From the NCBI GenBank assembly GCA_964481655.1, contig CAYZVO010000004.1:1702-65701 (forward strand): 64,000 bases of DNA, given 5' to 3'. Below, piece after piece: positions 3,304 to 60,211 of the stretch; the first letter of the stretch is position 1; every line of letters begins with the position of its first letter. The notes beneath the pieces were generated by a model. That model had not been told where the DNA came from, made no database searches, and was given only the letters and a program-made list of their open reading frames with translations. A program made the position numbers and the translations under genes. The DNA is from an uncultured Enterobacterales bacterium (GTDB lineage: Bacteria > Myxococcota_A > UBA796 > JAFGLY01).

Positions 3304-4250
3304 GCGGGCTCCTGTGGGTCGGGCTCGAGGAAGCGGCCCGGCTCGAAGTGGTCCCAGAAGTGCCAGTCTTCCGGATGCTGGGTGAGGCAGTCGCTGAGGA
3401 AGCTCGCCACCAGATCCGCCCCCGCCTCGAGCACCCGCTGCCTGGGGAGCTCCCGAGGGAGCTCGAGGGGAGCGCCGATCTCGGTGACCCAGCGGGGACG
3501 CGCGCCCGCGCGGCGGTGGGTGCGCAGGGGCAGCAGCGGCGCACCAGCCTGCCAGGCGAGCCAGACGGGGCTGACCGGGACGCCCATGGGCTGGCCGCAG
3601 ACCTGGCGCACCAGCCGGCGTCCCAGCTCCTGGCCGCCCCCGGTGCCGTCGCAGGTGGCCATCACCACGCCGCCGTCGCGCAGGGCCCGCAGCACCGGCC
3701 GCAGGAAGCCCTTGCCGTCGTGGACGGTCACGGGCATGGAGGCCTCGAGGGCCCGGCGGCTGCCCGCGGCCCACTCCCCCACCCGGCTAAGGCCGGTGAC
3801 CACACCACCGCCCACCTGGTGCACGGGGTAGCCGAGCACGCCCATGCCGTGCAGGGGCAGCTGCACCGGGCCCATGTGGGGGTGCATCAGCAGCACCCCG
3901 CGGCCGTCCTCGAGGGCGCGGTCCACGTGGTCCAGGCCCCGGATCTCCACGTAGCGATCCAGGGTCTGCCGGGTCATGCGGGGGAAGCTGACGGGCAGGT
4001 ACTGGTGCTGGAAGTGGGTGCCGAAGGTGCGGGCGGCCACCCGAGCCAGGTCCTGGCGGGCGGGGAAGGCGCGGGCCAGGTTGCGCTCGATGCGCTCGAG
4101 GCTGCCGCTGGAGGCCAGGGCCACGAGGCGACCCAGGCGGCGGTTGGCGGACAGCTCCCAGCCGTGGGGCAGGCGGGCGATGGCCTGGCGGTAGGGGCCC
4201 CAGATGGCGAGGCGGTAGGCGTCCCGCAGGGGCGACTCGGCGAAGATCAC
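3300..4250 (-). CDS. LpxL/HtrB-family (lipid A biosynthesis-type) acyltransferase
   Basis: ERIERNLARAFP..., RGLDHVDRALEDGRGVLLMHPHMG and VMATCDGTGG resemble the lauroyl/myristoyl acyltransferase family layout. Translationally coupled to the downstream gene. Confidence 0.6.
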   Translation of the reverse strand: MIFAESPLRDAYRLAIWGPYRQAIARLPHGWELSANRRLGRLVALASSGSLERIERNLARAFPARQDLARVAARTFGTHFQHQYLPVSFPRMTRQTLDRYVEIRGLDHVDRALEDGRGVLLMHPHMGPVQLPLHGMGVLGYPVHQVGGGVVTGLSRVGEWAAGSRRALEASMPVTVHDGKGFLRPVLRALRDGGVVMATCDGTGGGQELGRRLVRQVCGQPMGVPVSPVWLAWQAGAPLLPLRTHRRAGARPRWVTEIGAPLELPRELPRQRVLEAGADLVASFLSDCLTQHPEDWHFWDHFEPGRFLEPDPQEPA

Positions 4251-11694: not shown

Positions 11695-14600
11695 ATGTCG
11701 TGCACCCCGGCACCGGTCCGACCCATGCACATCCTCGCGCTCCCCCTCATCGCCACCCTGCAGGCCGCCACGATCACCGTGGGCTCGGGCTCGAGCTACG
11801 ACCACGCCAGCATCCAGGACGCCATCGACGACGCCAGCGACGGGGACACCATCACGGTGGCCACGGGCACCTACGCCGAGTCCATCGACCTGGCGGGCAA
11901 GGAGCTCACCATCGAGTCCTCGGGCTCCACCTCCCGCACGGTCATCGCGCCGACGGGGAGCTCGCCCGCGATCACGGTGGACCAGGGCGAGAGCGCCGTG
12001 ACGGTCGAGGGCTTCACCATCCAGCCCAGCGGCGGCCGGGCCATCTGGGTCGAGGACTCCAGCCCCTCGTTCGTGGACCTCGCCATCGACAGCGCGGGCA
12101 CGCCGTCCAGCGGTCAAGGCGGCGCCATCTACATCTCCGGCGGCGCCCCCAGCTTCGACCAGCTCGAGGTCTCGGGCAGCCGCGCGGCCTACGGCGGGGA
12201 CCTCTACCTGACCGATCACGCCGACGTGCTGATCACCGACAGCAGCTTCGACAGCTCCCAGGCCACCTTCGGAGGCAGCGTCTGGGCCGAGAACTCCACC
12301 CTCACCCTCATCTCCGTCAGCGCGGTGGACGCGCGCTCCTCCAACTCGGGGGGCTGGGGCTACTTCGACAACGCCGAGCTGTACGCCACGGACCTCGAGC
12401 TCGAGGACCCCAGCGGCGACACCTGCTTCGGCGCCGGGCTGTTCGCCCTGGACCACAGCCACGTGGAGTGGGACGGCGGGGGCGTCAGCGGCGCCGTCGC
12501 GGACGAGTACCGCTCCGGCTACACCGGCGGCGCGGTCCACCTGCGCGGCTCGTCGACCTTCGACGGCACCGACCTGCTCTTCGAGGACAACCTGGCCTAC
12601 GCCGGCGGCGCCATGGACGTGCAGGACAGCGCCAGCGCGACCCTGACGGACTGCAACTTCGACGACAACGAGGCCTACACCAAGGGCGGCGGCCTGCGGG
12701 CCTACGACAGCGGCTCGGCGGCCTGCGACGGCTGCGCCTTCGAGGGCAACGTCGCCGCTGAAGGCGGCGCGGTCGATGTGAGCGTGGACGCCAGCTACAC
12801 GGATCAGGACGGCAGCTACGACGACAACGAGGCCAGCTCCGGCGACGGCGGCGCCGTCCGCGTGGCCGACGACGCCGAGGTCTACATCGAGGGCGCCAGC
12901 TTCGAGGGCAACGCCGCCAGCGAGTCCGGCGGCGCCCTGGCGGTGGAGGACCCGGGCGACGAGGACGTCTACCTGGTCAGCGCTACCTTCACCTCGAACA
13001 CCGCCCAGACCGGCGACGGCGGCGCGGTGGCCATCACCTCCGACGCCAACCTGTGGCTGGATCTGTGCAGCTTCGACCTCAACGAGGCCTCTCTGGGCTG
13101 GGGCGGCGCGGTGGCCTTCGATCCCGACAGCCCGGGCTACACCCTCGAGGCCAGCGACTGCACCTTCGAGGAGAACCAGGCCGACGACGGCGGCGGCGCG
13201 CTGTGGGCCAACGAAGCGGACGAGATCACAGTCCTGGACTCCGCCTTCCTCCGCAACGAGTCGGCCGCTGACGGCGGCGCACTGTACCTCGAGGGCAACG
13301 ACGAGGTGCTGGCCCGCCGCAACCTGTTCCACGAGAACACCGCCGTCTCGGTGGGCGGCGCCTACTACGAGACGGGCACCGCCATCAGCGCCGAGGTCAC
13401 CAACTGCATCTTCTCCGAGAACATGGCGACGCTGGGCGCCGCCGTGGCCCTCGAGGACCAGACCATCCAGATGGAGCTGGTCAACAACAACCTCACCGGC
13501 AACGACGCCACCAGCGACGGCGCCCACCTCTACCTGAGCTCCGCGACCATCAGCTTCGTCAACAACATCGCCACCAACGGCGTGGACGGCGGCGGGCTGT
13601 ACGCGGCGGACAGCGCCTCGGCCTCGGGATCCGACTTCTACTACGACGACGTGTGGTCCAACTCCGGCGGAGACTACACCGGCACCCTGACCGACCCGGT
13701 GGGGACCAGCGGCAACATCTCCGAGGATCCCCAGCTGCGCTCCTACACCCAGGACGGGGACGAGACCAACGACGACCACCACCTGGAGCTCGACAGCCCC
13801 TGCCTGGACCAGGGCGACCCCAGCATCGTCGATCTGGACGGCACCCAGTCGGACATCGGCGTGTACGGCGGCCCCTACGCGGACGGCTCCGACGCCGACG
13901 GCGACGGCTACTGGGACATCACCGACTGCGACGACACCGACCCCACCATCCACCCCGGCGCCGAGGAGACCCCCTACGACGGGATCGACCAGGACTGCGA
14001 CGGGCACGATCTGATCGACGTGGACGGCGACGGCTACGAGGCCCCGGACGTGGGGGGCACCGACTGCGACGACGATGATGCGACCATCTATCCGGGCGCG
14101 CCGGACACCTGGTACGACGGCGTGGACAGCGACTGCGCCGGGGACGACGACTACGATCAGGACGGCGACGGCTACCAGTCCTCCGCCTACGGCGGCCAGG
14201 ACTGCGACGACACCGATCCCAACATCAACCCCGGCGTGCCCGACACCTGGTACGACGGCGTGGACAGCGACTGCGACGGCCACAGCGACTACGACGCCGA
14301 CTACGACGGCCGGGACGACGTCGGCTACGGCGGCGACGACTGCGACGACACCGACGGCAGCATCTACCCCGGCGCCACCGAGATCCCCTACGACGGCCTC
14401 GACCAGGACTGCGACGGCGAAGACATCACCGACGTGGACCAGGACGGCTACGACGCCGAGGTGGTGGGCGGCACCGACTGCGACGACGAGAACGCCGAGG
14501 CCTACCCCGGCGCCCCCGATGACCCCTACGACGGCGTGGACACCGACTGCGACGGCTTCCACGACTACGATCTGGACCACGACGGCTACATCCCGGTCAC

Positions 14601-16857
14601 CTTCGGCGGCGAGGACTGCGACGACACCGACCCGATGATCAGCCCCGAGGCCGACGAGATCTGGTACGACGGCGTGGACCAGGACTGCGACGAGCACAGC
14701 GACTACGACCAGGACTTCGACGGCTGGGACAGCGACCAGTACGGCGGCGAGGACTGCGACGACACCCACGCCGACGCCCACCCCGGCGCCACCGAGATCT
14801 GGTACGACGGCATCGACCAGGCCTGCGACGGCGGCGACGACTACGACCAGGACGGCGACGGCTGGCAGTGGTCGGCCTTCTACGGCCCCGAGGACGACTG
14901 CAACGACGAGAACGCCCACATCCACCCCGGGGCGGTGGAGCAGTTCAACGGGCTGGACGACGACTGCGACGGCTGGACGGAGCTGGACGACCGGGACCAG
15001 GACGGCATGGCCGACTGGTTCGAGTGGATGCACGGCACCGACTACGAGAACCCGGACACCGACGGCGACACCCTGCTGGACGGCGAGGAGATCGACAGCA
15101 CCCTCGACCCCGCTGACACCGACGCGGACACCATCATCGATCCCCTGGACGAGGACGACGACGGAGACGGCATCCCCAGCCGCACCGAGCTGACCACCGA
15201 CGTGGACGACGACCAGATCTGGGACCAGGACGTGGACGGCGACGGCCTGCTCAACTCCGTGGACAAGGACGCCGACGGCGACAGCTACCCCGACCGCACC
15301 GAGGGCACCGAGGATCGGGACCGCGACGGCGTGCCCGACTACCTGGACTACACCGGGGACTACGCCGGAGGCGGCTGCGCGGCCCTCAGCGGCTGCGGCG
15401 GCGGCAACGGCGGCCTGGCCGGCCTGCTGCTGCTCGGCGGCCTGTTCGGCTCCCGGCGCCGGCGTCGGGCCACCATCTGGGCCCCCCTCGCGGGCCTGGG
15501 CCTGCTGCTGGCGCTCGCGCTCCAGCCCGGCGCCGCCACGGCGGCGGAGGACTACGACGCCGTGGACGTGCGCGGGTTCTGGATGGCCGACACCTCCGGC
15601 GATCCCCACCGCCCCGTGCGCCTGGCCTACCCCTCCTCGGGCACCGGCTGGGACGCCGGCCTGCTGGTGGACGCCGCCCGCAATCCCCTGGTCGAGGTCA
15701 TGCCCGACGGCCGCGAGGCCATCGTCGACCTGATGACCAGCGCCCACGCCTTCGGCGGCATCTCCTGGCGGGGAATGCGCTTCGACATGGCGGTGCCGGT
15801 CACCCTCTACGGGCACGATCTGGCGGGCGGCTTCGCCGCCATGGGCGACCTGCGGGCCGGGATGCACGGGCCCGCCGTGGCCCCCCGGGGCAGCGGCCCC
15901 GGGGGGGGTGTGGCCGCCTGGGGCTGGCTGCCCACCGGAGGCGAGGCCCGCTGGTCCGGCAGCCCCGGGGCCGCCGCGGGCGCCGTGGCGACGGTGGCCC
16001 AGGAGATCGGCCCCATCGGCTGGACCGTCAACGCCGGCGTGCGCGTGGCCCGCGCCGACGACGCCCGCAACATCCGCTCCGGGCCCGGCCCCCTGGGGGG
16101 CGCGGACCTGCACTACAGCGTCACCGACGCCCTCGCCGGGGGCGTCGGCGCCGTGGTCCAGGGCACCACCGGCTGGAGCTCCTGGCCCCTCGTGGCCGAC
16201 GCCCGGGTCCGCTACCGGGTCCGCGGTGGCGGCTTCGCCATCGCCGGCCTGGCCACCGGCATCACCGACGGCGTCGGCGCCGCGGGAGCGCGGGCCTACG
16301 CCGGCGTCGGCTACGGCCGGCGGCGCTCGGACTGGAGCCCCGCGATCATCGAGGCGCCCGTGCCCACCCTGATCCACGAGGTCACGGTCCAGCCCGGTGA
16401 GCTGCCGCTGGTGGAGCAGCCCCTGGCCTTCCTGGCCGAGGACCGCATCGTGGTCGGCGAGCAGATCTTCTTCCGCGAGGCCCGCACCGCGATCCTGCCG
16501 GAGAGCGAAGAGGTGCTCGAGGCCGTCCGCGACGTGCTGATGGAGCATCCCGAGGTCACCTGGCTGCTGGTGGAGGGACACACCAACTCCCGCGGCAGCG
16601 AGGGCTACAACCTCGAGCTGTCCGAGGGCCGCGCCCAGGCCGTGGTCGACTGGCTGGTGGCCCACGGCGTCCCCTCCGAGCGCCTGCTGGCCAAGGGCCA
16701 CGGCGAGAACCAGCCCCTGCTCGAGGACAACCACCCCGACGCCATGGTGGTCAACCGCCGGGTGGAGTTCCTGGTCCTGCGCTCGGACGAGACCCCGGAC
16801 GACGTGGTGCGCCCGGACCAGAACGCCGTCCCCGATGAGGCGTGGAAGGATCGATAG
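11695..16857 (+). CDS. giant secreted repeat protein: Pmp-type parallel beta-helix, 8 MopE-like Cys/Asp repeats, TSP3-like Ca-binding repeats, internal MYXO-CTERM-like segment, C-terminal OmpA domain
   Basis: Signal-like MHILALPLIATLQA (alternative ATG 11725). Repeated FxxN...GGA(L/V) units. Eight copies of DCDDxDxxIxPGAxExxYDGxDxDCDG. DxDxDG runs. GGGCAALSGCGGGNGGLAGLLLLGGLFGSRRRRR. The C-terminus LLVEGHTNSRGSEGYNLELSEGRAQAV...NRRVEFLV matches the OmpA_C signature. Confidence 0.8.
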   Translation: MSCTPAPVRPMHILALPLIATLQAATITVGSGSSYDHASIQDAIDDASDGDTITVATGTYAESIDLAGKELTIESSGSTSRTVIAPTGSSPAITVDQGESAVTVEGFTIQPSGGRAIWVEDSSPSFVDLAIDSAGTPSSGQGGAIYISGGAPSFDQLEVSGSRAAYGGDLYLTDHADVLITDSSFDSSQATFGGSVWAENSTLTLISVSAVDARSSNSGGWGYFDNAELYATDLELEDPSGDTCFGAGLFALDHSHVEWDGGGVSGAVADEYRSGYTGGAVHLRGSSTFDGTDLLFEDNLAYAGGAMDVQDSASATLTDCNFDDNEAYTKGGGLRAYDSGSAACDGCAFEGNVAAEGGAVDVSVDASYTDQDGSYDDNEASSGDGGAVRVADDAEVYIEGASFEGNAASESGGALAVEDPGDEDVYLVSATFTSNTAQTGDGGAVAITSDANLWLDLCSFDLNEASLGWGGAVAFDPDSPGYTLEASDCTFEENQADDGGGALWANEADEITVLDSAFLRNESAADGGALYLEGNDEVLARRNLFHENTAVSVGGAYYETGTAISAEVTNCIFSENMATLGAAVALEDQTIQMELVNNNLTGNDATSDGAHLYLSSATISFVNNIATNGVDGGGLYAADSASASGSDFYYDDVWSNSGGDYTGTLTDPVGTSGNISEDPQLRSYTQDGDETNDDHHLELDSPCLDQGDPSIVDLDGTQSDIGVYGGPYADGSDADGDGYWDITDCDDTDPTIHPGAEETPYDGIDQDCDGHDLIDVDGDGYEAPDVGGTDCDDDDATIYPGAPDTWYDGVDSDCAGDDDYDQDGDGYQSSAYGGQDCDDTDPNINPGVPDTWYDGVDSDCDGHSDYDADYDGRDDVGYGGDDCDDTDGSIYPGATEIPYDGLDQDCDGEDITDVDQDGYDAEVVGGTDCDDENAEAYPGAPDDPYDGVDTDCDGFHDYDLDHDGYIPVTFGGEDCDDTDPMISPEADEIWYDGVDQDCDEHSDYDQDFDGWDSDQYGGEDCDDTHADAHPGATEIWYDGIDQACDGGDDYDQDGDGWQWSAFYGPEDDCNDENAHIHPGAVEQFNGLDDDCDGWTELDDRDQDGMADWFEWMHGTDYENPDTDGDTLLDGEEIDSTLDPADTDADTIIDPLDEDDDGDGIPSRTELTTDVDDDQIWDQDVDGDGLLNSVDKDADGDSYPDRTEGTEDRDRDGVPDYLDYTGDYAGGGCAALSGCGGGNGGLAGLLLLGGLFGSRRRRRATIWAPLAGLGLLLALALQPGAATAAEDYDAVDVRGFWMADTSGDPHRPVRLAYPSSGTGWDAGLLVDAARNPLVEVMPDGREAIVDLMTSAHAFGGISWRGMRFDMAVPVTLYGHDLAGGFAAMGDLRAGMHGPAVAPRGSGPGGGVAAWGWLPTGGEARWSGSPGAAAGAVATVAQEIGPIGWTVNAGVRVARADDARNIRSGPGPLGGADLHYSVTDALAGGVGAVVQGTTGWSSWPLVADARVRYRVRGGGFAIAGLATGITDGVGAAGARAYAGVGYGRRRSDWSPAIIEAPVPTLIHEVTVQPGELPLVEQPLAFLAEDRIVVGEQIFFREARTAILPESEEVLEAVRDVLMEHPEVTWLLVEGHTNSRGSEGYNLELSEGRAQAVVDWLVAHGVPSERLLAKGHGENQPLLEDNHPDAMVVNRRVEFLVLRSDETPDDVVRPDQNAVPDEAWKDR
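13890..14975 (+). repeat. coding tandem array of 8 MopE-like putative metal-binding repeats (~38-40 aa each)
   Basis: ITDCDDTDPTIHPGA, GTDCDDDDATIYPGA, GQDCDDTDPNINPGV, GDDCDDTDGSIYPGA, GTDCDDENAEAYPGA, GEDCDDTDPMISPEA, GEDCDDTHADAHPGA, EDDCNDENAHIHPGA. Each is followed by YDGxDxDCDG. Confidence 0.8.
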
Positions 16858-16890: not shown

Positions 16891-16928
16891 GCTGATAGGC
16901 GACAGCTGACAGCTGACAGCTGACAGCT
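16891..16928. repeat. family A heptamer array (GCTGACA)n, solo arm
   Basis: GCTGATA GGCGACA GCTGACA GCTGACA GCTGACA GCT, lying between stop 16857 and start 16938. Confidence 0.85.
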
Positions 16929-16937
16929 CGGAGCCCC

Positions 16938-17831
16938 ATGCTCTCCTGGACCAAAGCCGGGGCCGTCAAGCGGCCCCCCCCCCTGCAGATCCGCGTGCAG
17001 CGCCGCTACCCGGACCGGGTGCGCGCGGGGGCTCCCCTGCCCACCCGCAGCCTGTCCCGGGCCGAGCTGCTCGCCAACCTGCGGCACTTCACCGAGGGCA
17101 AGCGGGGCCCGCGCACCGCGCCCTGCACCACCCTGGTGCTCTCGGGGGTCGGGCTGCTGGCCTCGCCGGACACCGCGCCGGTGCTCGAGGCCGCTCGCGA
17201 GCTCGGCATCGAGCACGTGGTGCTGCACGCTGGCACCGAGGACCTGGCCGGCTTCGACGCCGCCCCCTGGAGCGCGCTGGTGGACGTCCTGGTGGTCCCC
17301 CTGCAGCCGGGCCGGGGCGACGCGCTGCTGGAGCATGGCGCGCGAGCGGTCGCCGCCTGTCGGGAGGCGGGCATCGAGGTGGCCGCCAACACCGTGCTCC
17401 GCGCCGAGGCGGTAGACGCCCTGACAGCCCTCGTCGGCCTGGTGCAGCGCCTCGCCCCCCACAGCCTGACCCTGTCCTACCCCTTCCCCAGCGGCGGTCC
17501 CCAGCCCGCCCCGCCTCACCCTCGGGCGCTGCTGCCTGCGCTGCAGCGGGCCGTGGAACAGCTCGAGGCGGCCGGAGCCGACCCACGGCTCAAGGGCCTG
17601 CCCGCCTGCTGGCTGGGTCCCCTCGCCCACCGCCTCCGCCCGTCGTCCAACCGCTGGTACGTCGACGCCGATCACCAACTGGACGGCGCGCTGCTGTTCT
17701 TCCCGGACGTGCTGGCCTTCCACAAGGGCGACGCCTGCCGCTTCTGCGTCAGCGACGGACGCTGCGACGGCTTCTTCGCCGCCTGGCTGCGCCAGCCGGG
17801 CTTCCCCGGGCTGGAGCCGATGGACGCCTGA
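16938..17831 (+). CDS. hypothetical protein, possibly a radical-SAM/SPASM-derived fold lacking the CxxxCxxC triad
   Basis: High GC3. LVLSGVGLLASPDTAPVLEAARELGIEHVVLHAG resembles the GGEP/TIM-barrel core. The C-terminal CRFCVSDGRCDG is Cys-rich. No N-terminal Cys triad. Confidence 0.45.
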   Translation: MLSWTKAGAVKRPPPLQIRVQRRYPDRVRAGAPLPTRSLSRAELLANLRHFTEGKRGPRTAPCTTLVLSGVGLLASPDTAPVLEAARELGIEHVVLHAGTEDLAGFDAAPWSALVDVLVVPLQPGRGDALLEHGARAVAACREAGIEVAANTVLRAEAVDALTALVGLVQRLAPHSLTLSYPFPSGGPQPAPPHPRALLPALQRAVEQLEAAGADPRLKGLPACWLGPLAHRLRPSSNRWYVDADHQLDGALLFFPDVLAFHKGDACRFCVSDGRCDGFFAAWLRQPGFPGLEPMDA

Positions 17832-19154: not shown

Positions 19155-20612
<1,458 letters not shown>

Positions 20613-20618
20613 CCCGGG

Positions 20619-20787
20619 AGCTATCAGCCGTCAGCTGTCAGCTATCAGCTCCGTTTCGCCAGCCGCAGCGCCCCTGGTGAGCCAGCGGCGTTGCGCCCCG
20701 TGGGCGTCGATCGGCTCGCGACGTCACTGGCCCACCGCCGGCGCGTCCGCCCGGCGTGACGAGGCTGACGGCTGACAGCTGACAGCT
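20619..20787. repeat. family A element: heptamer inverted-repeat arms flanking a ~110-bp conserved core
   Basis: Left arm AGCTATC AGCCGTC AGCTGTC AGCTATC AGCT. Right arm GCTGACG GCTGACA GCTGACA GCT. The core is homologous to the reverse complement of 36371-36482. Confidence 0.85.
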
Positions 20788-20789
20788 CC

Positions 20790-21584
20790 TCACTCCATCG
20801 CCAGCTTGGCTTCGTCGCCCTCGAAGGTGGCGCCGACCCAGTCCATGGGGGAGCTGGGGAGCTTGCGCACGAGGCGGGGGATGGTGCGCATGACCAGGCG
20901 CCGGTTGGCCTGGCTGTCGGCCTGCAGCTCGGGCTGGTGGGCGATGAAGCGCTCGCAGGCCTCGAGCTGGGCGGCGGTGGTCAGCGCGGTGGCCGCGAAG
21001 GCGCGATCCGAGGCGTCCAGCTCGATGTCGTCGATGCTGTCACGGAGCGGCTGCTCGGGGACCTCCACCGGCCGGAACAGCCGCGCCTCGACCCGGCCGA
21101 CGACCCGCGCCGCCCGGGGCTCGGTGGCCTCGAGGGTCAGGCGGTGGACCACCACGGCATGCCGCTGCCGGAACAGCCCATCCACGAAGATGGGCAGGTC
21201 GTAGTAGGCCCCCTCGACCTCGAGCTCGAGGGCGACCACCTGCACGAAGCCCTCCCGCTCGAGCAGCTCGAAGCGCACGGTGCCCAGGGCCACGTCCGAG
21301 GCCTCCGCCTGCATGCGGAGCAGCTGGGCCAGGTTCTCTTCTTCCCCAGGGAGCAGGGCCGGGCCGAGCTGGCCGCGGGCGGCGTTCAGCTGATCCGACA
21401 GCACGTCCGCGGCCCGGACCACGTCGATGGACTCCACCCGCTCCCGCAGGCTGGGCGGGGCCTCGGTGGGCTCGGGTGCGGCGGGCGCCAGCCACAGCGC
21501 CACGCCGCCCAGCGCCACGCAGACCGCGATCCCGGTCCAGATGAGGGGGGCGATGCGCGCGCGGGCGCTGCGGGGCGGGGCCAT
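20790..21584 (-). CDS. hypothetical membrane-anchored protein (PilO/GspM-like topology, weak)
   Basis: Single N-terminal TM helix IAPLIWTGIAVCVALGGVALWLA. High GC3. Starts 4 nt after the upstream lipoprotein gene. Confidence 0.5.
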   Translation of the reverse strand: MAPPRSARARIAPLIWTGIAVCVALGGVALWLAPAAPEPTEAPPSLRERVESIDVVRAADVLSDQLNAARGQLGPALLPGEEENLAQLLRMQAEASDVALGTVRFELLEREGFVQVVALELEVEGAYYDLPIFVDGLFRQRHAVVVHRLTLEATEPRAARVVGRVEARLFRPVEVPEQPLRDSIDDIELDASDRAFAATALTTAAQLEACERFIAHQPELQADSQANRRLVMRTIPRLVRKLPSSPMDWVGATFEGDEAKLAME

Positions 21585-26411: not shown

Positions 26412-26492
26412 GGAAGGTCGGGGGAGGCGAGAGGCGAGAGGCGAGTCGCGACCTACGACCGACGACACACGACTCGCGACCCACCTACGACC
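26412..26492. repeat. family B heptad-periodic palindromic element (short copy)
   Basis: GGCGAGA GGCGAGA GGCGAGT CGCGACC TACGACC GACGACA CACGACT CGCGACC. GCGAGTCG pairs with CGACTCGC. It fills the gap between stops 26411 and 26493. Confidence 0.8.
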
Positions 26493-30170: not shown

Positions 30171-30369
30171 GGCGGGAGGTCGAACGCGGGTCGCAGGAGG
30201 CGAGTCGTCGGAGGCGAGTCGCGAGTCGCGAGTCGATGAAGGTCAGAGGTGGGTCGACCTACGACCTACGACCATCCTCCATCGCCCCACCTTGCTCGAC
30301 TCGCGACTGGCGACTGGCGACTGGCGACCCACGACTCGCGTCCTCCCTCCCACCACGCTCCCGTCTGCG
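30171..30369. repeat. family B heptad-periodic palindromic element (full copy)
   Basis: Left half has AGTCGNN heptads, centre is CGAGTCGATGAAGGTCAGAGGTGGGTCGA, right half has NNNCGAC heptads (CTACGAC x2, TGGCGAC x3). It fills the gap between stops 30170 and 30370. Confidence 0.85.
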
Positions 30370-34661: not shown

Positions 34662-36344
<1,683 letters not shown>

Positions 36345-36345
36345 A

Positions 36346-36506
36346 AGCTGTCAGCCGTCAGCTGTCAGCCTCGTCCCGCTGGTCCGCGGCGCCGGCGGTG
36401 GGCCGGTGATGCAGTGGCGGTGCGAGCGTCCGCGGGGCGCAGCGCTGCTGGCTCACCGCGACGTTGAACCCGGCACAACGGAGCTGACAGCTGAGAGCTG
36501 AGAGCT
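36346..36506. repeat. family A element, second full copy in inverted orientation
   Basis: Left arm AGCTGTC AGCCGTC AGCTGTC AGCC. Right arm GCTGACA GCTGAGA GCTGAGA GCT. The reverse complement of the core shares GGTGAGCCAGCRGCGYTGCGCCCCG and GGCCCACCGCCGGCGC with 20651-20763. Confidence 0.85.
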
Positions 36507-36508
36507 CG

Positions 36509-39500
36509 CTAGTGGAAGTCCCGGCTCCGGGGTGAGACGTCCGGGGCCTGCTCGAGCTCGGCGACGTGGTAGGCGACGAGGCTCAGGGCCTCGTTCTCGC
36601 GCTGCAGCTTGCCGCGGATGACCACCAGGGTCGCGGTGCGCACGATGCGGCGCTGCCGCTGGTAGAGCTTGGGCCAGATGACCACGTTGAGCTGACCGGT
36701 CTCGTCCTCGAGGGTCAGGAACACCACCCCCGAGGCGGTGCCGGGCCGCTGCCGGCACGAGATGAGCCCCGCGACCCGCACGACCCGCCCGGCCTTGACC
36801 TCGGACAGCGCGGCCACCGGGTGCACGCCCTCGCGCTCGAGGCGGGCACGCTCGAGGCCGATGGGGTGCTGGTGCACGCTCAGGCCCACCGCCGCATAGT
36901 CCGACTCCAGGCGCTCGCGAGCGGTGGCCTCGGGCAGCTGGGGTGGTGGAGACCGGCGGGAGATGCCCGCGAACAGCGGGTTGTCCCACAGCCCCGCCAC
37001 GGCCCACAGGGCATGGCGCCGGGACAGGCCCAGGGCCTGGAAGGCGTCGGCCCGGGCCAGCAGCTCGAGGGCGGCCCGGGGGAGCTGGCTGCGGGCGGCC
37101 AGATCGTTCAGGTCGCGGAAGCGGTCTTCGGCCCGGGCCCGTTCGAGCTGCTCGGCCCACTGCTGGCCGAAGCCCCGGATCAGCCGCAGCCCCAGCCGGA
37201 CCGCGGGCTGGTCCGGGTCGTCGCTGGAAGGCTCCAGGCTGCAGTCCCAGCTGGACCGGGTGGCGTCGATGGGGCGCACCTCGACGTCGTGGCGCTGCAC
37301 ATCGGCCACCAGAGCCCTCGGGGTGTAGAAGCCCATGGGCTGGCTGTTGATCAGCGCCGCGCAGAAGGCCGCCGGGTAGTGGTGCTTGAGCCAACAGGAG
37401 ACGTAGACCAGCAGGGCGAAGGAGGCGGCGTGGGACTCGGGGAAGCCGTACTCGCCGAAGCCCTTGATCTGTTCCACCATGCGATCGGCGTAGGTTCCGG
37501 TGATGCCGTTGGCCTCGAGGCCCTTGCGGAACTCCTCGGCGATGGGCCCCAGGGCGCCCTTGCGGCGCCAGGCGGCCATGGAGCGCCGCAGGCGGTCGGC
37601 CTGGCCCGCCGAGAAGCCCGCCACCGCCATGGCCGCCGCCATGACCTGCTCCTGGAAGATGGGCACCCCCAGGGTGCGCTCGAGGATGGGCTCGAGGGCC
37701 GGGTGGGGGTAGCGCACGGGCTCGAGCCCCTGGCGGCGCTTCAGGTAGGGGTGCACCATGCCCCCCTGGATGGGGCCGGGGCGCACGATGGCCACCTCGA
37801 TGACCAGATCGTAGAAACAGCGGGGGCGCAGCCGGGGCAGCATGGACATCTGGGCCCGGCTCTCGATCTGGAACACGCCGACCGTGTCGGCACGACAGAT
37901 CATGTCGTAGACAGCGGGATCCTCGGCGGGGACCGAGGCCAGGGTCCAGCGCCGCCCCCAGGGGGGCGTGGGGTGGGGTGGTGACTCATCACCCGGGCCG
38001 GCGGGGGTGGTGAACTGGCGGGCGTCGGCGGGATCGTCGGGGATGGCGCCGTGGGGGGCGAAACCGGAGACCAGGTCGAAGGCCTTGCGGATGGCGGTGA
38101 GCATCCCCAGCGACAGCAGATCGACCTTGACGAAGCCCACGTCGTCGATGTCGTCCTTGTCCCACTGGATGACCGTGCGACCCTGCATGGTGGCGGGCTC
38201 GATGGGCACCCGGCCGCTCAGGTCGTCGTCGGTGAGCACGAAGCCCCCGACGTGGATGCCCACATGGCGCGGGAAGCCCCTCAGCTCGCCGGACAGCTCG
38301 ACCGTGAGCTTCACCCGGTCCTCGGCGGGATCGAGGCCGGCGGCCTGGAGCTGATCGTCGGTGATGGGCTCCCGGCCCCAGTAGTCGGCCTGGCGGGCCA
38401 TGGCGTCGATCTGGTCGAGGCCCAGGCCCAGGGCCTTGCCCACGTCGCGCACGGCGGAGCGGCGCCGGTAGGCGATGACCTCGTTGACCATGGCGGCCCG
38501 GTGGCGGCCGTATTTTTCATAGAGGTATTGGATGAGCTCCTCGCGCCGCTCGTGCTCGAAGTCCACGTCGATGTCGGGGGGCTCGCCCCGCTCGGCGCTG
38601 ATGAAGCGCTCGAAGAGCAGGGTGGAGCGCGAGGGGTCCACCGCCGTGATCCCCAGAGCGAAGCAGACCGCGCTGTTGGCCGCCGAGCCCCGGCCCTGGC
38701 AGAGGATGCCCCGGGAGCGGGCGAACTGCACGGCGTCGTGGACGGTGAGGAAGTAGGCGGCGAAGCCCAGCTGCTCGATGATGCCCAGCTCGTGGTCGAC
38801 CTGGGCCTGGACCGTCGCGGGGACCCCCGCGGGGTAGCGCTCCGCCAGGCCCTGGCGCACCAGCTGCACGAGCCAGGACATGGGGCTGTGGCCGTCGGGC
38901 ACCACCTCGCGGGGGTAGCGGTAGTCCAGCTGGGCCAGGGAGAAGCTGTGCTCGGCGGCGATGGCGGCGCTGGTGCGCACCGCGTCGGCGAGGCGCCCCG
39001 GCGCGTCACCCCCGATGGCGCGCCCCACAGCCTGGAAGAGGGCGTGGGCCTGGGCTGGGGAGCGCAGCACCCGGGCGGCGTTGGGGGCCAGGGCGCGCCC
39101 GGCCGCGTCGATGGTTGTGCGGCGGCGGATGCAGGTGATCACGTCCAACAGGCGCTTGCGATCCGGGTGGTGCTGCTGCACGTCGCCCACCGCGACCAGA
39201 GGCAAGCCGGCCCAGCGGGCCAGGCGCAGGCTGGCGCCGATGTGCGCGGCATCGCCCGGCTGGAGGGCGCAGCTGACCGCCAGGGCGATGCGATCGCCGA
39301 AGGCCTCTCGCAGGGGCGAGAGCTGGGCCACGGACCAGGGCCCGTGCAGCAAGGCGGTGAGGCCGGTGGCGTGCTCGAGCAGATCGGGCAGCTGGTGCAG
39401 GGCCTGACCCTTGGGCTGATCCCGACGGCCGATGGTGAGCAGTCGGCAGAGGCTGGCCCAGCCGGCGCGATCCCGCACCAGCACCACGACGCTGGGGAGG

Positions 39501-39724
39501 TCCTGCAGGGTGAGCAGCGCGCCGACCACCAGCTTCACCCCGTGCTCACGGGCCGCCCGGTGGGCCCGAACCATGCCGTAGACACCGTCGCGATCGGTGA
39601 TGGCGACGGACGACAGGCCCAGCTCGGCGGCCTGGGCGACCAGCTCTTCGGGCGACGAGGCCCCCTCGAGGAACGAGAAGTAGGAGCGGCAGAACAGCTC
39701 GGCGTAGGGGGGCGGCGCGCTCAC
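36509..39724 (-). CDS. dnaE2: error-prone DNA polymerase III alpha-like subunit DnaE2 (ImuC)
   Basis: GTG start at 39724 overlapping the imuB stop (GTGA). N-terminus YAELFCRSYFSFLEGASSPEELV (PHP domain). 1071 aa. Co-located with imuB. Confidence 0.9.
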   Translation of the reverse strand: MSAPPPYAELFCRSYFSFLEGASSPEELVAQAAELGLSSVAITDRDGVYGMVRAHRAAREHGVKLVVGALLTLQDLPSVVVLVRDRAGWASLCRLLTIGRRDQPKGQALHQLPDLLEHATGLTALLHGPWSVAQLSPLREAFGDRIALAVSCALQPGDAAHIGASLRLARWAGLPLVAVGDVQQHHPDRKRLLDVITCIRRRTTIDAAGRALAPNAARVLRSPAQAHALFQAVGRAIGGDAPGRLADAVRTSAAIAAEHSFSLAQLDYRYPREVVPDGHSPMSWLVQLVRQGLAERYPAGVPATVQAQVDHELGIIEQLGFAAYFLTVHDAVQFARSRGILCQGRGSAANSAVCFALGITAVDPSRSTLLFERFISAERGEPPDIDVDFEHERREELIQYLYEKYGRHRAAMVNEVIAYRRRSAVRDVGKALGLGLDQIDAMARQADYWGREPITDDQLQAAGLDPAEDRVKLTVELSGELRGFPRHVGIHVGGFVLTDDDLSGRVPIEPATMQGRTVIQWDKDDIDDVGFVKVDLLSLGMLTAIRKAFDLVSGFAPHGAIPDDPADARQFTTPAGPGDESPPHPTPPWGRRWTLASVPAEDPAVYDMICRADTVGVFQIESRAQMSMLPRLRPRCFYDLVIEVAIVRPGPIQGGMVHPYLKRRQGLEPVRYPHPALEPILERTLGVPIFQEQVMAAAMAVAGFSAGQADRLRRSMAAWRRKGALGPIAEEFRKGLEANGITGTYADRMVEQIKGFGEYGFPESHAASFALLVYVSCWLKHHYPAAFCAALINSQPMGFYTPRALVADVQRHDVEVRPIDATRSSWDCSLEPSSDDPDQPAVRLGLRLIRGFGQQWAEQLERARAEDRFRDLNDLAARSQLPRAALELLARADAFQALGLSRRHALWAVAGLWDNPLFAGISRRSPPPQLPEATARERLESDYAAVGLSVHQHPIGLERARLEREGVHPVAALSEVKAGRVVRVAGLISCRQRPGTASGVVFLTLEDETGQLNVVIWPKLYQRQRRIVRTATLVVIRGKLQRENEALSLVAYHVAELEQAPDVSPRSRDFH

Positions 39725-41337
39725 GCGGACACCGCGGGGGTGGGGGAGCCCTGGTCGAAGAGGCCGTGCAGGAAGGCGTGCCCGAGCTCGCGGAAGACCC
39801 ACAGCCCGCGGCCGTCCTGCAGCTCGAGGGACCAGTAGCGGCGGTCGAGCCCGGCGGCCCACCACTCGACGTTGAGCAGCTCGGGCCCCCAGCAGCGCCG
39901 CACCGGCAGCCAGCGACCCTCGAGCTGGACCCGCCGCGGTGGGCCGAGGCGTGGCTCGAGCTGCACGGGCTTGGGCTCGGACAGCATCAAGGCCGGGCGC
40001 GGCAGGGGCAGGGAGAAGCGCCAGGCTTCGTGGGGCCAGGCCGGGTCCAGGTCCTTGGCGCCCTGCTTGGTGGAGGCGGGGGGCGCAGCCTGGGCGGCCT
40101 GCTGGAGGCCGGGCTCCACGAAGCGGCCCTGCGCGTCGAAGCTGGAGCCAGGGGCCCAGGCGGCCTCGGGTCGCCAGCGATCCCGGGGCTGGGGGGTGAA
40201 CATGGCCGCCGGCCCGAGGCTGTCGGCCAGCCGCGCGGCGACACCGGCCAGGGACTCGAGGGGCTCGCCCCCGGCGAGCAGGGGGGCCTGCGCCCCCGCG
40301 AAGGGGACCGGGCTGAGCTCCAGGGTCAGGCCGAGCACCGGGGCCGCCAGCTGCAGGCCCTCGAGGCGGCGGCGCAGCAGGCGGACGAGGCGCTCGGGAT
40401 CGCGCACGGGGCGGCCTGTGCGCAGGGAGAGGCGCAAGCTGCCGGCGTCCTCGAGGGTCAGGATCAGCACCAGGCCCACCAGGCCCTGGGCCCCCGCCTC
40501 GAGCTGCGCGCAGAGATCCCCGCAGAGCCGCTTGAGCACGAACAGCAGCGGCTCGACGGCGCTGACGGGGGCCGGGAGCTCCCAGCCGACGCGCATGCGC
40601 TCACCCTCGACCCGCGCGGCCATGGGCAGGCTGCCCAGCCCCCCGCGGGCCAGGCGCTGCAGGCGCACGGCTTCGGCCCCGAAGCGACCCGCCACATCGG
40701 CCGGCGCGAGGACGGCCAGCTCCCCCACCCGACGCAGGCCGAGATCATGCAGCAGCCGGGCGAGACGCGGGCTGGGCTCGAGGGCGCGCAGGGGCAGCGG
40801 AGCCAGGGCCTGGGCAAGACCGGCGGGGGGGACCACCACATCGCGGGGGGCCCAAGCCGCCAGCACCCGCGCGGCGAAGAGATCATCGGCGATCACGACC
40901 CGCGCGTCGTGCCCCAGCAGCTGCAGGCGGTCGGCCGCCCCGGCCAGCAGCGCGGGCTCGGGCGTGGGTGGGCGCGCGCCACCGCCGGGGGGGACCAGCT
41001 CGGCCGCCAGGCCGTCGGGGGGCAGCGGCGCCACGGCGGGGGCGAAGCGCGACAGCTGCCAGGCGAGCTCGGCGAGATCCAGGGACTCGTCATCGGGCTC
41101 GAGCAGCTCGATGGCCAGATCCGGCAGCAGGGCGCGGGCCGCCGCCAGGGTCATGCCGTGCTCGATGCCGGCCCGTGCAGCGCGCGAGGTGCAGGCCTGC
41201 ACCCGCAGGGCGCTCTTCTGTTCGGCCACCAGCACCACGGCCTGGCGCGGATCCCAGCCGCAACGGTCCAGCCGGAAGCCCGGCAGGTGGCAGACCAGGT
41301 AGCGGGGCCCTGTGGCCGCGGGTGGTGAGGGACTCAT
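39721..41337 (-). CDS. imuB: ImuB, Y-family-polymerase-like mutasome protein
   Basis: N-terminus RYLVCHLPGFRLDRCGW...EHGMTLAAARALLPDL is typical of ImuB. Translationally coupled to dnaE2. Confidence 0.8.
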   Translation of the reverse strand: MSPSPPAATGPRYLVCHLPGFRLDRCGWDPRQAVVLVAEQKSALRVQACTSRAARAGIEHGMTLAAARALLPDLAIELLEPDDESLDLAELAWQLSRFAPAVAPLPPDGLAAELVPPGGGARPPTPEPALLAGAADRLQLLGHDARVVIADDLFAARVLAAWAPRDVVVPPAGLAQALAPLPLRALEPSPRLARLLHDLGLRRVGELAVLAPADVAGRFGAEAVRLQRLARGGLGSLPMAARVEGERMRVGWELPAPVSAVEPLLFVLKRLCGDLCAQLEAGAQGLVGLVLILTLEDAGSLRLSLRTGRPVRDPERLVRLLRRRLEGLQLAAPVLGLTLELSPVPFAGAQAPLLAGGEPLESLAGVAARLADSLGPAAMFTPQPRDRWRPEAAWAPGSSFDAQGRFVEPGLQQAAQAAPPASTKQGAKDLDPAWPHEAWRFSLPLPRPALMLSEPKPVQLEPRLGPPRRVQLEGRWLPVRRCWGPELLNVEWWAAGLDRRYWSLELQDGRGLWVFRELGHAFLHGLFDQGSPTPAVSA

Positions 41338-44150: not shown

Positions 44151-44233
44151 CAGCGAAGGGCGGCGTTGTGCTGCGGCGACACGCCGACAGCAGGAACGTC
44201 GTCGCTCGAGGACGCCGTAGGTCGGCCTCGAGC

Positions 44234-59988: not shown

Positions 59989-60211
59989 CGGGCTGAGGGG
60001 TCGTGGGTCGCAGGTCGTAGGTCGTAGGTCGTAGGTCGCCAGCCGTGGGAGGCGAGTCGCCAGTCGCGAGTCGATGAAGGTCCGAGGATGGTCGAAGGAC
60101 GATCTACGACCCACCTCCTACGAGTTCCTCCATCCTCCCACCTACATCCTCTGGCGATTCACCTCTCGCCTCCCACGACTCGCCTCCCACCTCCAACGTC
60201 CAACCTCCTAC
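59989..60211. repeat. family B heptad-periodic palindromic element (second full copy)
   Basis: CGTAGGT x3. GTGGGAGGCGAGTCG (60045-60059) pairs with CGACTCGCCTCCCAC (60176-60190). The centre CGAGTCGATGAAGGTCCGAGGATGGTCGA is shared with 30171-30369. It fills the gap between stops 59988 and 60212. Confidence 0.85.

Follow-up and report, generated by a model that had tools for sequence, protein, structure and literature searches.

The window, that is, the whole 64-kb stretch of DNA that was analysed, has a GC content of about 71% and comes from an uncultured marine bacterium that is present in several JGI and ENA metagenome assemblies. The nearest named homologues of its DnaE2 protein (55–66% identity) belong to metagenome-assembled genomes labelled Myxococcota or Deltaproteobacteria, and the host phylum is probably Myxococcota. 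Two genes of the window converge on the locus described here. The first is a 560-aa ORF (34662–36344) with a weak protein-kinase match (Pkinase, E 5.7e-5, below Pfam's cut-off), referred to below as kinase-like; it carries a long Pro-Glu (PEPEPE) low-complexity tract (window 35915–36049), and its C-terminus is unlike those of all relatives (531–585 aa) in both length and sequence. The facing gene on the minus strand (ORF 36509–39865; 1118 aa, called as 1071 aa in JGI) encodes a polymerase III alpha subunit of the DnaE2 type. Between the two stop codons lies a long imperfect palindrome, element B, with the following layout.

36342..36344, plus strand: TAG stop of the 560-aa kinase-like ORF
36346–36506: element B, 161 nt, a long imperfect palindrome between the facing stop codons of two convergent genes
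36346..36369: left arm, AGCTGTC AGCCGTC AGCTGTC AGC, 3.4 heptamers (period-7 run 36346–36369)
36370..36482: core, 113 nt
36483..36506: right arm, GCTGACA GCTGAGA GCTGAGA GCT (period-7 run 36481–36507)
36509..36511, minus strand: TAG stop (CTA on the plus strand) of the DnaE2-type polymerase gene

A single base, A (36345), separates the stop of the kinase-like ORF from the element, and two bases (CG) lie between its right end and the stop of the DnaE2-type gene; the coordinates, the arm sequences and the distances of 1 and 2 nt are all as the earlier note on this DNA had read them. The unit of the left arm is of the type AGCNNTC (equivalently TCAGCNN), and the right arm mirrors the left, with variable NN positions that are not complementary. 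The core is itself an imperfect palindrome, in which the block GGTGAGCC pairs with GGCCCACC, and both blocks are conserved. Element B and its flanks are identical across three independent JGI assemblies, and the element is therefore not an assembly artefact.

Other heptamer loci are found elsewhere in the window.

20619..20787: copy A, of the same family as element B but in the opposite orientation, at a convergent junction
16897..16930: solo array, (GCTGACA)x4.5, in a co-directional spacer, 8 nt upstream of the ATG at 16938
30171–30369, 60010–60210 and 26412–26492: further long palindromes with other heptamers (GCGAGTC/GACTGGC, GGTCGTA, GGCGAGA)

Copy A lies between a sigma-54 activator (stop 20610–20612) and a 264-aa ORF (stop 20790–20792), and its sequence is identical in five assemblies. 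Element B had been taken for a second, inverted member of the same family, and the alignments bear this out: the reverse complement of element B matches 20612–20795 at 84% mean column identity, and the cores alone (113 and 114 nt, without arms) share 74% global identity. In local alignment the cores score 49, versus 12.1 ± 2.1 (maximum 22) for 2000 dinucleotide shuffles (z ~18), so that they clearly exceed the shuffled controls that the earlier note had proposed as the yardstick; in the wrong orientation the score is only 16. Since copy A stands at another convergent junction and the flanks of the two copies are unrelated, the arms and the core were copied together. The family A copies are non-coding and 161–169 bp long with arms of 24–28 bp, and the arms in the window contain 3.4–4.4 units each. 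The 10-mer AGCTGTCAGC, with at most one mismatch, occurs 25 times in the window (6.7 ± 2.6 expected), nearly always at 16904–16928, 20619–20787 or 36346–36506. We found no further family A copies in the relatives' loci or in the 9 kb beyond the window. The 26 matches to the family A core pattern in the genome collection are all due to chance and come from unrelated taxa, and the three among them from Myxococcota/Kofleriaceae are coding sequence without arms.

In total, the window contains nine period-7 arrays at six loci, five of which are at convergent junctions; the remaining convergent junctions of the window measure 0–83 nt. The palindromes at 30171–30369, 60010–60210 and 26412–26492 each fill a convergent junction from stop to stop, and the first two are 72–78% alike. 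Another kind of repeat is found at 11695–16857, which encodes an OmpA-anchored protein of 1720 aa that contains beta-helix/PMP repeats as well as eight metal-binding motifs of the MopE type, partly from 138-nt tandem repeats at 13875–14864.

The history of the locus can be read from five relatives with the same gene order and with DnaE2 proteins 83–90% identical to that of the window. The shared order runs from an imuB-like gene through dnaE2, the convergent kinase-like gene and a 601–604-aa gene to an FMN reductase and a metallo-beta-lactamase. In the window 164 nt separate the two stops, versus 35, 7, 7, 10 and 33 nt in relatives whose DnaE2 identities are 90, 89, 89, 85 and 83%, respectively; the empty-site alleles that the earlier note had named as evidence for mobility are thus present in all five. 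These sites read TAG CGGGGCG TCA (L155), TAG CGCAGCG CTA (L156) and TGA CCGCGGCCGG TCA (L152), and the 33-nt spacer of L153 begins with TAG CG. The filled site of the window reads TAG CG, then the element, then T CTA. The TAGCG at the dnaE2 stop is conserved, and element B begins directly after it. Element B is an insertion, added in this organism's lineage only, to a spacer of 7–35 nt. Its span from stop to stop, which had been presented as a trait of the element, is real as a span, but it is explained by an ancestral spacer of only a few bases rather than by a special property.

The other loci can be compared in the same relatives. The junction of copy A measures 177 nt, versus 65–75 nt of unrelated sequence in the relatives. 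At the site of the 30171–30369 palindrome, three relatives have 4–13 nt and a fourth has 81 nt; that of the 26412–26492 palindrome is 5–8 nt in three and 110 nt in one. No period-7 array was found in approximately 130 kb of the relatives' syntenic DNA; with nine arrays in the window and none in the relatives, the wave of insertion is confined to this lineage and postdates its separation from relatives at about 90% DnaE2 identity. The spacer of the solo array is 80 nt in the window versus 45–62 nt in the relatives and is exactly 35 nt (5 × 7) longer than in L157. The relatives' spacers align around this array as if (GCTGACA)n had arisen from an ancestral ...ACCACAGCGAGG... with an ACAGC seed. 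The solo array thus seems to have grown in place, so that a non-transpositional route to such arrays exists. CAGCG is also present in the L156 empty site for element B. Elsewhere, the convergent spacer at 44151–44233 is 83 nt long, whereas every one of the five relatives has 6–12 nt there. Two small hairpins but no heptamers occur in it, and it may represent a further insertion, of a different kind, that is specific to this lineage.

The insertion left no target-site duplication at element B when its flanks (TAGCG on one side, TCTA on the other) were compared with the L155 and L156 empty sites. Among 116 metagenome copies set against shuffled controls, direct repeats are not in excess and the inverted repeat does not extend into the flanks. 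Neither a transposase gene nor a REP-associated transposase gene was found in the 64-kb window or in the 9 kb beyond it.

Arms of the same type extend far beyond this genome. Metagenome contigs were scanned for AGCTGTCAGC followed, after a gap of 110–140 nt, by GCTGACAGCT. At least 120 loci with the same arms were recovered (L032–L151), mostly from soil and peat and with GC contents of 37–71%, and in nearly all of them the matched 10-mers sit in tandem arrays of the form (TCAGCNN)n...(NNGCTGA)n. Arms most often have four units (64 of 120 and 58 of 120 arms among the matches listed), and in the NN of the 120 loci listed the first position is mostly T and the second is free. Among the matches listed, the cores are unrelated except at orthologous loci, and copies A and B of the window are the sole clear paralogous pair among the loci compared. 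The arm type is common to many unrelated bacteria. The arms that had been ascribed to family A are therefore not specific to it, but are one instance of a widespread class of heptamer arrays with unrelated cores. Where arrays were not forced by the search pattern, five pairs run TCAGC...GCTGA and none runs in the reverse order; most apparent solo arrays in the metagenome contigs have a degenerate partner.

The position of the arms relative to genes was also recorded. Among the matches listed, 85 of the 213 arm ends with enough flank (40%) lie between −2 and +7 nt from the stop that closes an ORF of 80 codons or more, and in 31 of these 85 the stop is a TAG built from a T and the first AG of the arm. 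The junctions among the matches listed are co-directional in 61 cases (69%), convergent in 14 (16%) and divergent in 13. The class thus occupies ordinary intergenic junctions, and the strong convergent bias belongs to this genome and not to the class.

Some of the metagenome loci have unusual arrangements. In the rRNA operon of a soil bacterium (L053 1–757, L144 1–672), a TCAGCNN array lies 29 nt after the 23S gene and a full two-armed element ends 8 nt before the 5S rRNA. Of the elements at L150 (2938–3109) and L041 (2883–3035), one lies in the spc operon and extends from the stop of rpsE (S5) to 10 nt before the start of rpmD (L30), and the other is a pair of arms that encloses a tRNA gene on the opposite strand. 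Nested palindromes, with outer TCAGCNN arms around inner TCAGTNN/NNACTGA arms, occur in L122 (4841–5010), L063 and L124; the inner unit is of the type known from the published TAACTGA repeats. The only match in the viral collection is L162, an IMG/VR contig classed as viral (348–2650, 3641–3788), which has four arrays of other heptamers (GGCGACA, GTCGAAA and others) and one TCAGCNN pair. In L045 (7505–7772), the whole element has been tandemly duplicated together with 25 nt of its right flank.

Element B is real and was recently inserted. As to how it arrived, we lean, with slightly better than even confidence, towards the view that such elements spread as DNA through a putative trans-acting function that reads the phased arms, and that they are tolerated at gene 3' ends. 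This putative function would recognise the phased pentamers of the arms, and the element would spread in the manner of a MITE or a REPIN and insert next to gene ends with no visible target duplication. Once inserted, it would be tolerated and possibly even useful at gene 3' ends, because transcripts from either gene would fold into the same very stable hairpin. Such a structure could halt both convergent mRNAs at their 3' ends or make those ends more stable, in a place that formerly offered almost no spacer; an orientation-independent 3'-end hairpin for both convergent transcripts is plausible as a putative secondary role. The similarity of the A and B cores despite their different flanks argues for spread as DNA, as does the fixed order of the arms, with the TCAGC type first and the GCTGA type second. 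On the other hand, only two full family A copies are available, and transposons rarely end in repeats that consist of a simple tandem unit.

Alternatively, the element could be a selected bidirectional terminator or RNA 3'-end stabiliser, maintained mainly because its hairpin ends both convergent transcripts. We regard this as possible but rather unlikely. As RNA, element B folds at −102.6 kcal/mol on the plus strand (z −4.4) and −95.9 kcal/mol on the minus strand (z −5.2), and as DNA at −52.3 kcal/mol (z −3.2), so that the hairpin is indeed very stable and symmetric between strands. Such palindromes occupy five of the approximately 11 convergent junctions of the window, the arms begin a few bases from stop codons both here and at the 40% of listed metagenome arm ends noted above, and the heptamer repeats of Xanthomonas are mostly transcribed (Rehm et al., 2015; PMC4692102). 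Nevertheless, a scan of both strands over 35800–37000 revealed no U-tract terminator and no promoter-like site. Pairing of the arms is limited to pentamer helices, and the NN positions, which are free to mismatch, mostly do so: their complementarity between arms is in weak excess (61 versus 46 ± 6 and 111 versus 81 ± 7), and the mismatches, read on the sense strand of the gene next to the arm, show no excess of the G.U type over the A.C type (50 versus 66). This lack of a G.U-over-A.C asymmetry leads us to reject RNA-stem selection for the arms, and together with the weak NN complementarity it indicates that what is kept is the phased pentamer and not a continuous RNA stem. Moreover, the same junctions in close relatives do without the element, the listed metagenome junctions resemble random intergenic regions, and some elements lie within an rRNA operon or separate rpsE from rpmD, positions at which termination would do harm. 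The earlier proposal that the element works or inserts symmetrically therefore stands in part. The mirrored arms and the equivalent long hairpins on both strands make orientation-independent insertion or action plausible, but a terminator signature, an RNA-strand bias and a target-site duplication are all lacking; a symmetric function of element B is what we infer from the former.

The conservation of the arms in place bears on a different alternative, in which the TCAGC pentamers form a phased array that is bound by a conserved nucleic-acid-binding protein and the hairpin is incidental. Over five orthologous locus pairs, pentamer positions diverge by 4.6% (7.7% without the bases forced by the search pattern) and NN positions by 26% (35% without the pattern-forced bases), with values of 13.9% for flanks and 27% for cores; the arms at these loci also differ by 7-nt indels. 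The phased pentamer is kept in situ, and NN and core drift. A protein-binding array would account for a pentamer that is 3–6 times more conserved than NN, core and flanks in these pairs, for the mode of four units per arm, for mismatches that show no strand bias and for the fixed polarity of the two arms, and the GGGANTN repeats of Xanthomonas share the 5 + 2 unit and the four-unit mode (PMC4692102). Yet there is no candidate protein, and with a spacing of 7 bp neighbouring sites would not share one face of the DNA duplex. The same genome also contains at least three other heptamers (GCGAGTC, GGTCGTA and GGCGAGA), so that either several factors or a cause independent of sequence would be needed. 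Finally, homogenisation by slippage could mimic the conservation of the pentamer, which is kept by either selection or repeat homogenisation. We consider the protein-binding array unlikely as the primary explanation.

Growth in place, in which polymerase slippage expands the arms beside a pre-existing hairpin and the similarity between loci reflects convergence or gene conversion, is more doubtful still. The solo array, which looks as if it was generated from ancestral sequence, speaks for it, as do the 7-nt arm indels between orthologous metagenome loci and the unrelated cores of the others. Slippage is also the explanation for heptamer repeats offered in literature as cited in both MacGregor (2015; PMC4679880) and Rehm et al. 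(2015; PMC4692102). However, the ancestral spacer at element B, of only 7–35 nt, held no core to build on, slippage cannot yield a 113-nt core shared by copies A and B at 74% identity between unrelated flanks, and no copy-number polymorphism is seen across three to five assemblies.

The least probable reading, to which we give very little credence, is that the core encodes a structured small RNA gene or a cis-regulatory RNA: the fold is significantly more stable than those of shuffles and four of 54 RNAalifold pairs are changed on both sides between A and B, but this comparison comprises two sequences only, both strands fold equally well, there is no promoter-like site, cores are unrelated between loci and drift by about 27% in orthologues, and Rfam gave no match in the window at the gathering threshold, only a chance, sub-threshold S10-leader match at E ≤ 1 and no family over arms or cores in 20 metagenome loci. 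Two further candidates, an invertible segment and an integron attC site, were rejected, as the element is flanked by the convergent 3' ends of housekeeping genes, there is no promoter and the heptamer does not match GTTRRRY.

Among mobile elements of known type, REPINs or BIMEs consist of two inverted short repeats around a more variable spacer, form a hairpin and are mobilised by REP-associated tyrosine transposases. Their copies are dispersed through intergenic DNA, mostly near the 3' ends of genes and at convergent junctions, and are not known to carry a target-site duplication. Element B differs from them in that its arms are tandem direct repeats instead of imperfect palindromes of 20–40 nt and in that it has no conserved tetranucleotide of the GTAG type; no REP-associated transposase gene was seen in the window or the 9 kb beyond. 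With MITEs such as Correia and ERIC it shares a length of 100–200 bp, a non-coding sequence, terminal inverted repeats of about 25 bp and a long hairpin when transcribed, as well as presence/absence polymorphism between relatives, family A comprising two copies and a solo arm. It differs from MITEs in the lack of a target-site duplication and in terminal repeats that are low-complexity heptamer arrays, found across phyla around unrelated cores; no parent insertion sequence was identified, and the window contains no transposase. In comparison with an intrinsic (Rho-independent) terminator, element B has the GC-rich hairpin but not the T run.

A literature search with the literal repeat strings gave no relevant match; the closest systems are heptamer repeats of other sequence. 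In Nostoc as well as in Xanthomonas campestris and X. axonopodis, Rehm et al. (2015; PMC4692102) described arrays of (GGGAATC)n/(GGGANTN)n heptamers, in which five positions are conserved and two vary. Four is clearly the commonest number of units, and each genome has 70–75 pairs that face each other in convergent (inverted) orientation. About 90% of the arrays lie between genes, where the mean distance is 28 nt to the upstream ORF and 160 nt to the downstream one; some overlap stop codons, and they are rare between divergent genes (PMC4692102). Their lengths vary widely between related species, and no function was found for them, the four units being linked to G-quadruplex formation (PMC4692102). 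Element B resembles these repeats in its tandem heptamers with a conserved pentamer and two variable positions, in the pairing of its arrays in inverted orientation, in the preference of its class for about four units per array and in its intergenic location, 1 and 2 nt from two stop codons. Nevertheless, its AGCTGTC/GACAGCT unit has no G-tract and cannot form a G-quadruplex, and for this reason we regard it as a variant of that group and not as a member. It also differs in that the pair and the 113-nt core have been duplicated as one unit at two loci here, and in that the TCAGCNN type occurs in another phylum and in many soil metagenome lineages.

A second system comprises the TAACTGA direct repeats of Beggiatoaceae, cyanobacteria and Bacteroidetes, which are mainly direct and lie just upstream of start codons, with one 'indirect' repeat in the Maribeggiatoa genome (MacGregor, 2015; PMC4679880). 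Among the long simple repeats of many bacterial genomes, heptamers are the most frequent according to Mrazek (2007), as cited there. Both TAACTGA and the cyanobacterial STRR heptamers share with the present arms the intergenic arrays and the indels in steps of 7 nt between strains, and TAACTGA repeats are likewise found in ribosomal-protein operons, next to starts or after stops. The CTGA of TAACTGA is common to the NNGCTGA unit (compare TAGCTGA), and arrays of the ACTGA type are nested beside GCTGA arrays in L122. A hairpin of paired arms around a core has not, however, been described for the TAACTGA repeats.

The locus provides a clean and dated case, in which a syntenic region is filled in one lineage and empty in relatives at 83–90% protein identity. 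It is new in two respects: the four-unit rule and the abutment on stop codons hold for a unit that is unable to form a quadruplex, and the arm pair has been copied together with its core to a second locus in this genome. In genome annotation, many palindromes that run from stop to stop are accounted for by such elements, as are some TAG stop codons that take in the first two bases of an arm. A broader reading, which we offer as speculation and think improbable, is that hairpins with TCAGCNN arms or arms of other heptamers form a single cross-phylum class that docks at gene ends (stop codons, the 5S rRNA start and start codons) and whose pentamers are under selection. If this were true, a conserved trans-acting factor that reads motifs phased at 7 nt would be implied, being either a new mobile system that targets gene ends or a general 3'-end or insulator module, and the published G-quadruplex explanation of the four-unit rule would be wrong. 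In any case, the four units, the 5 + 2 design, the inverted pairs and the abutment on stop codons extend from a G-rich to a non-G-rich unit in very different genomes. The four-unit mode of a heptamer that is not G-rich contradicts the G-quadruplex explanation given for Xanthomonas and Nostoc, and the features that the two kinds of unit share point away from G-quadruplexes and towards a common mechanism.
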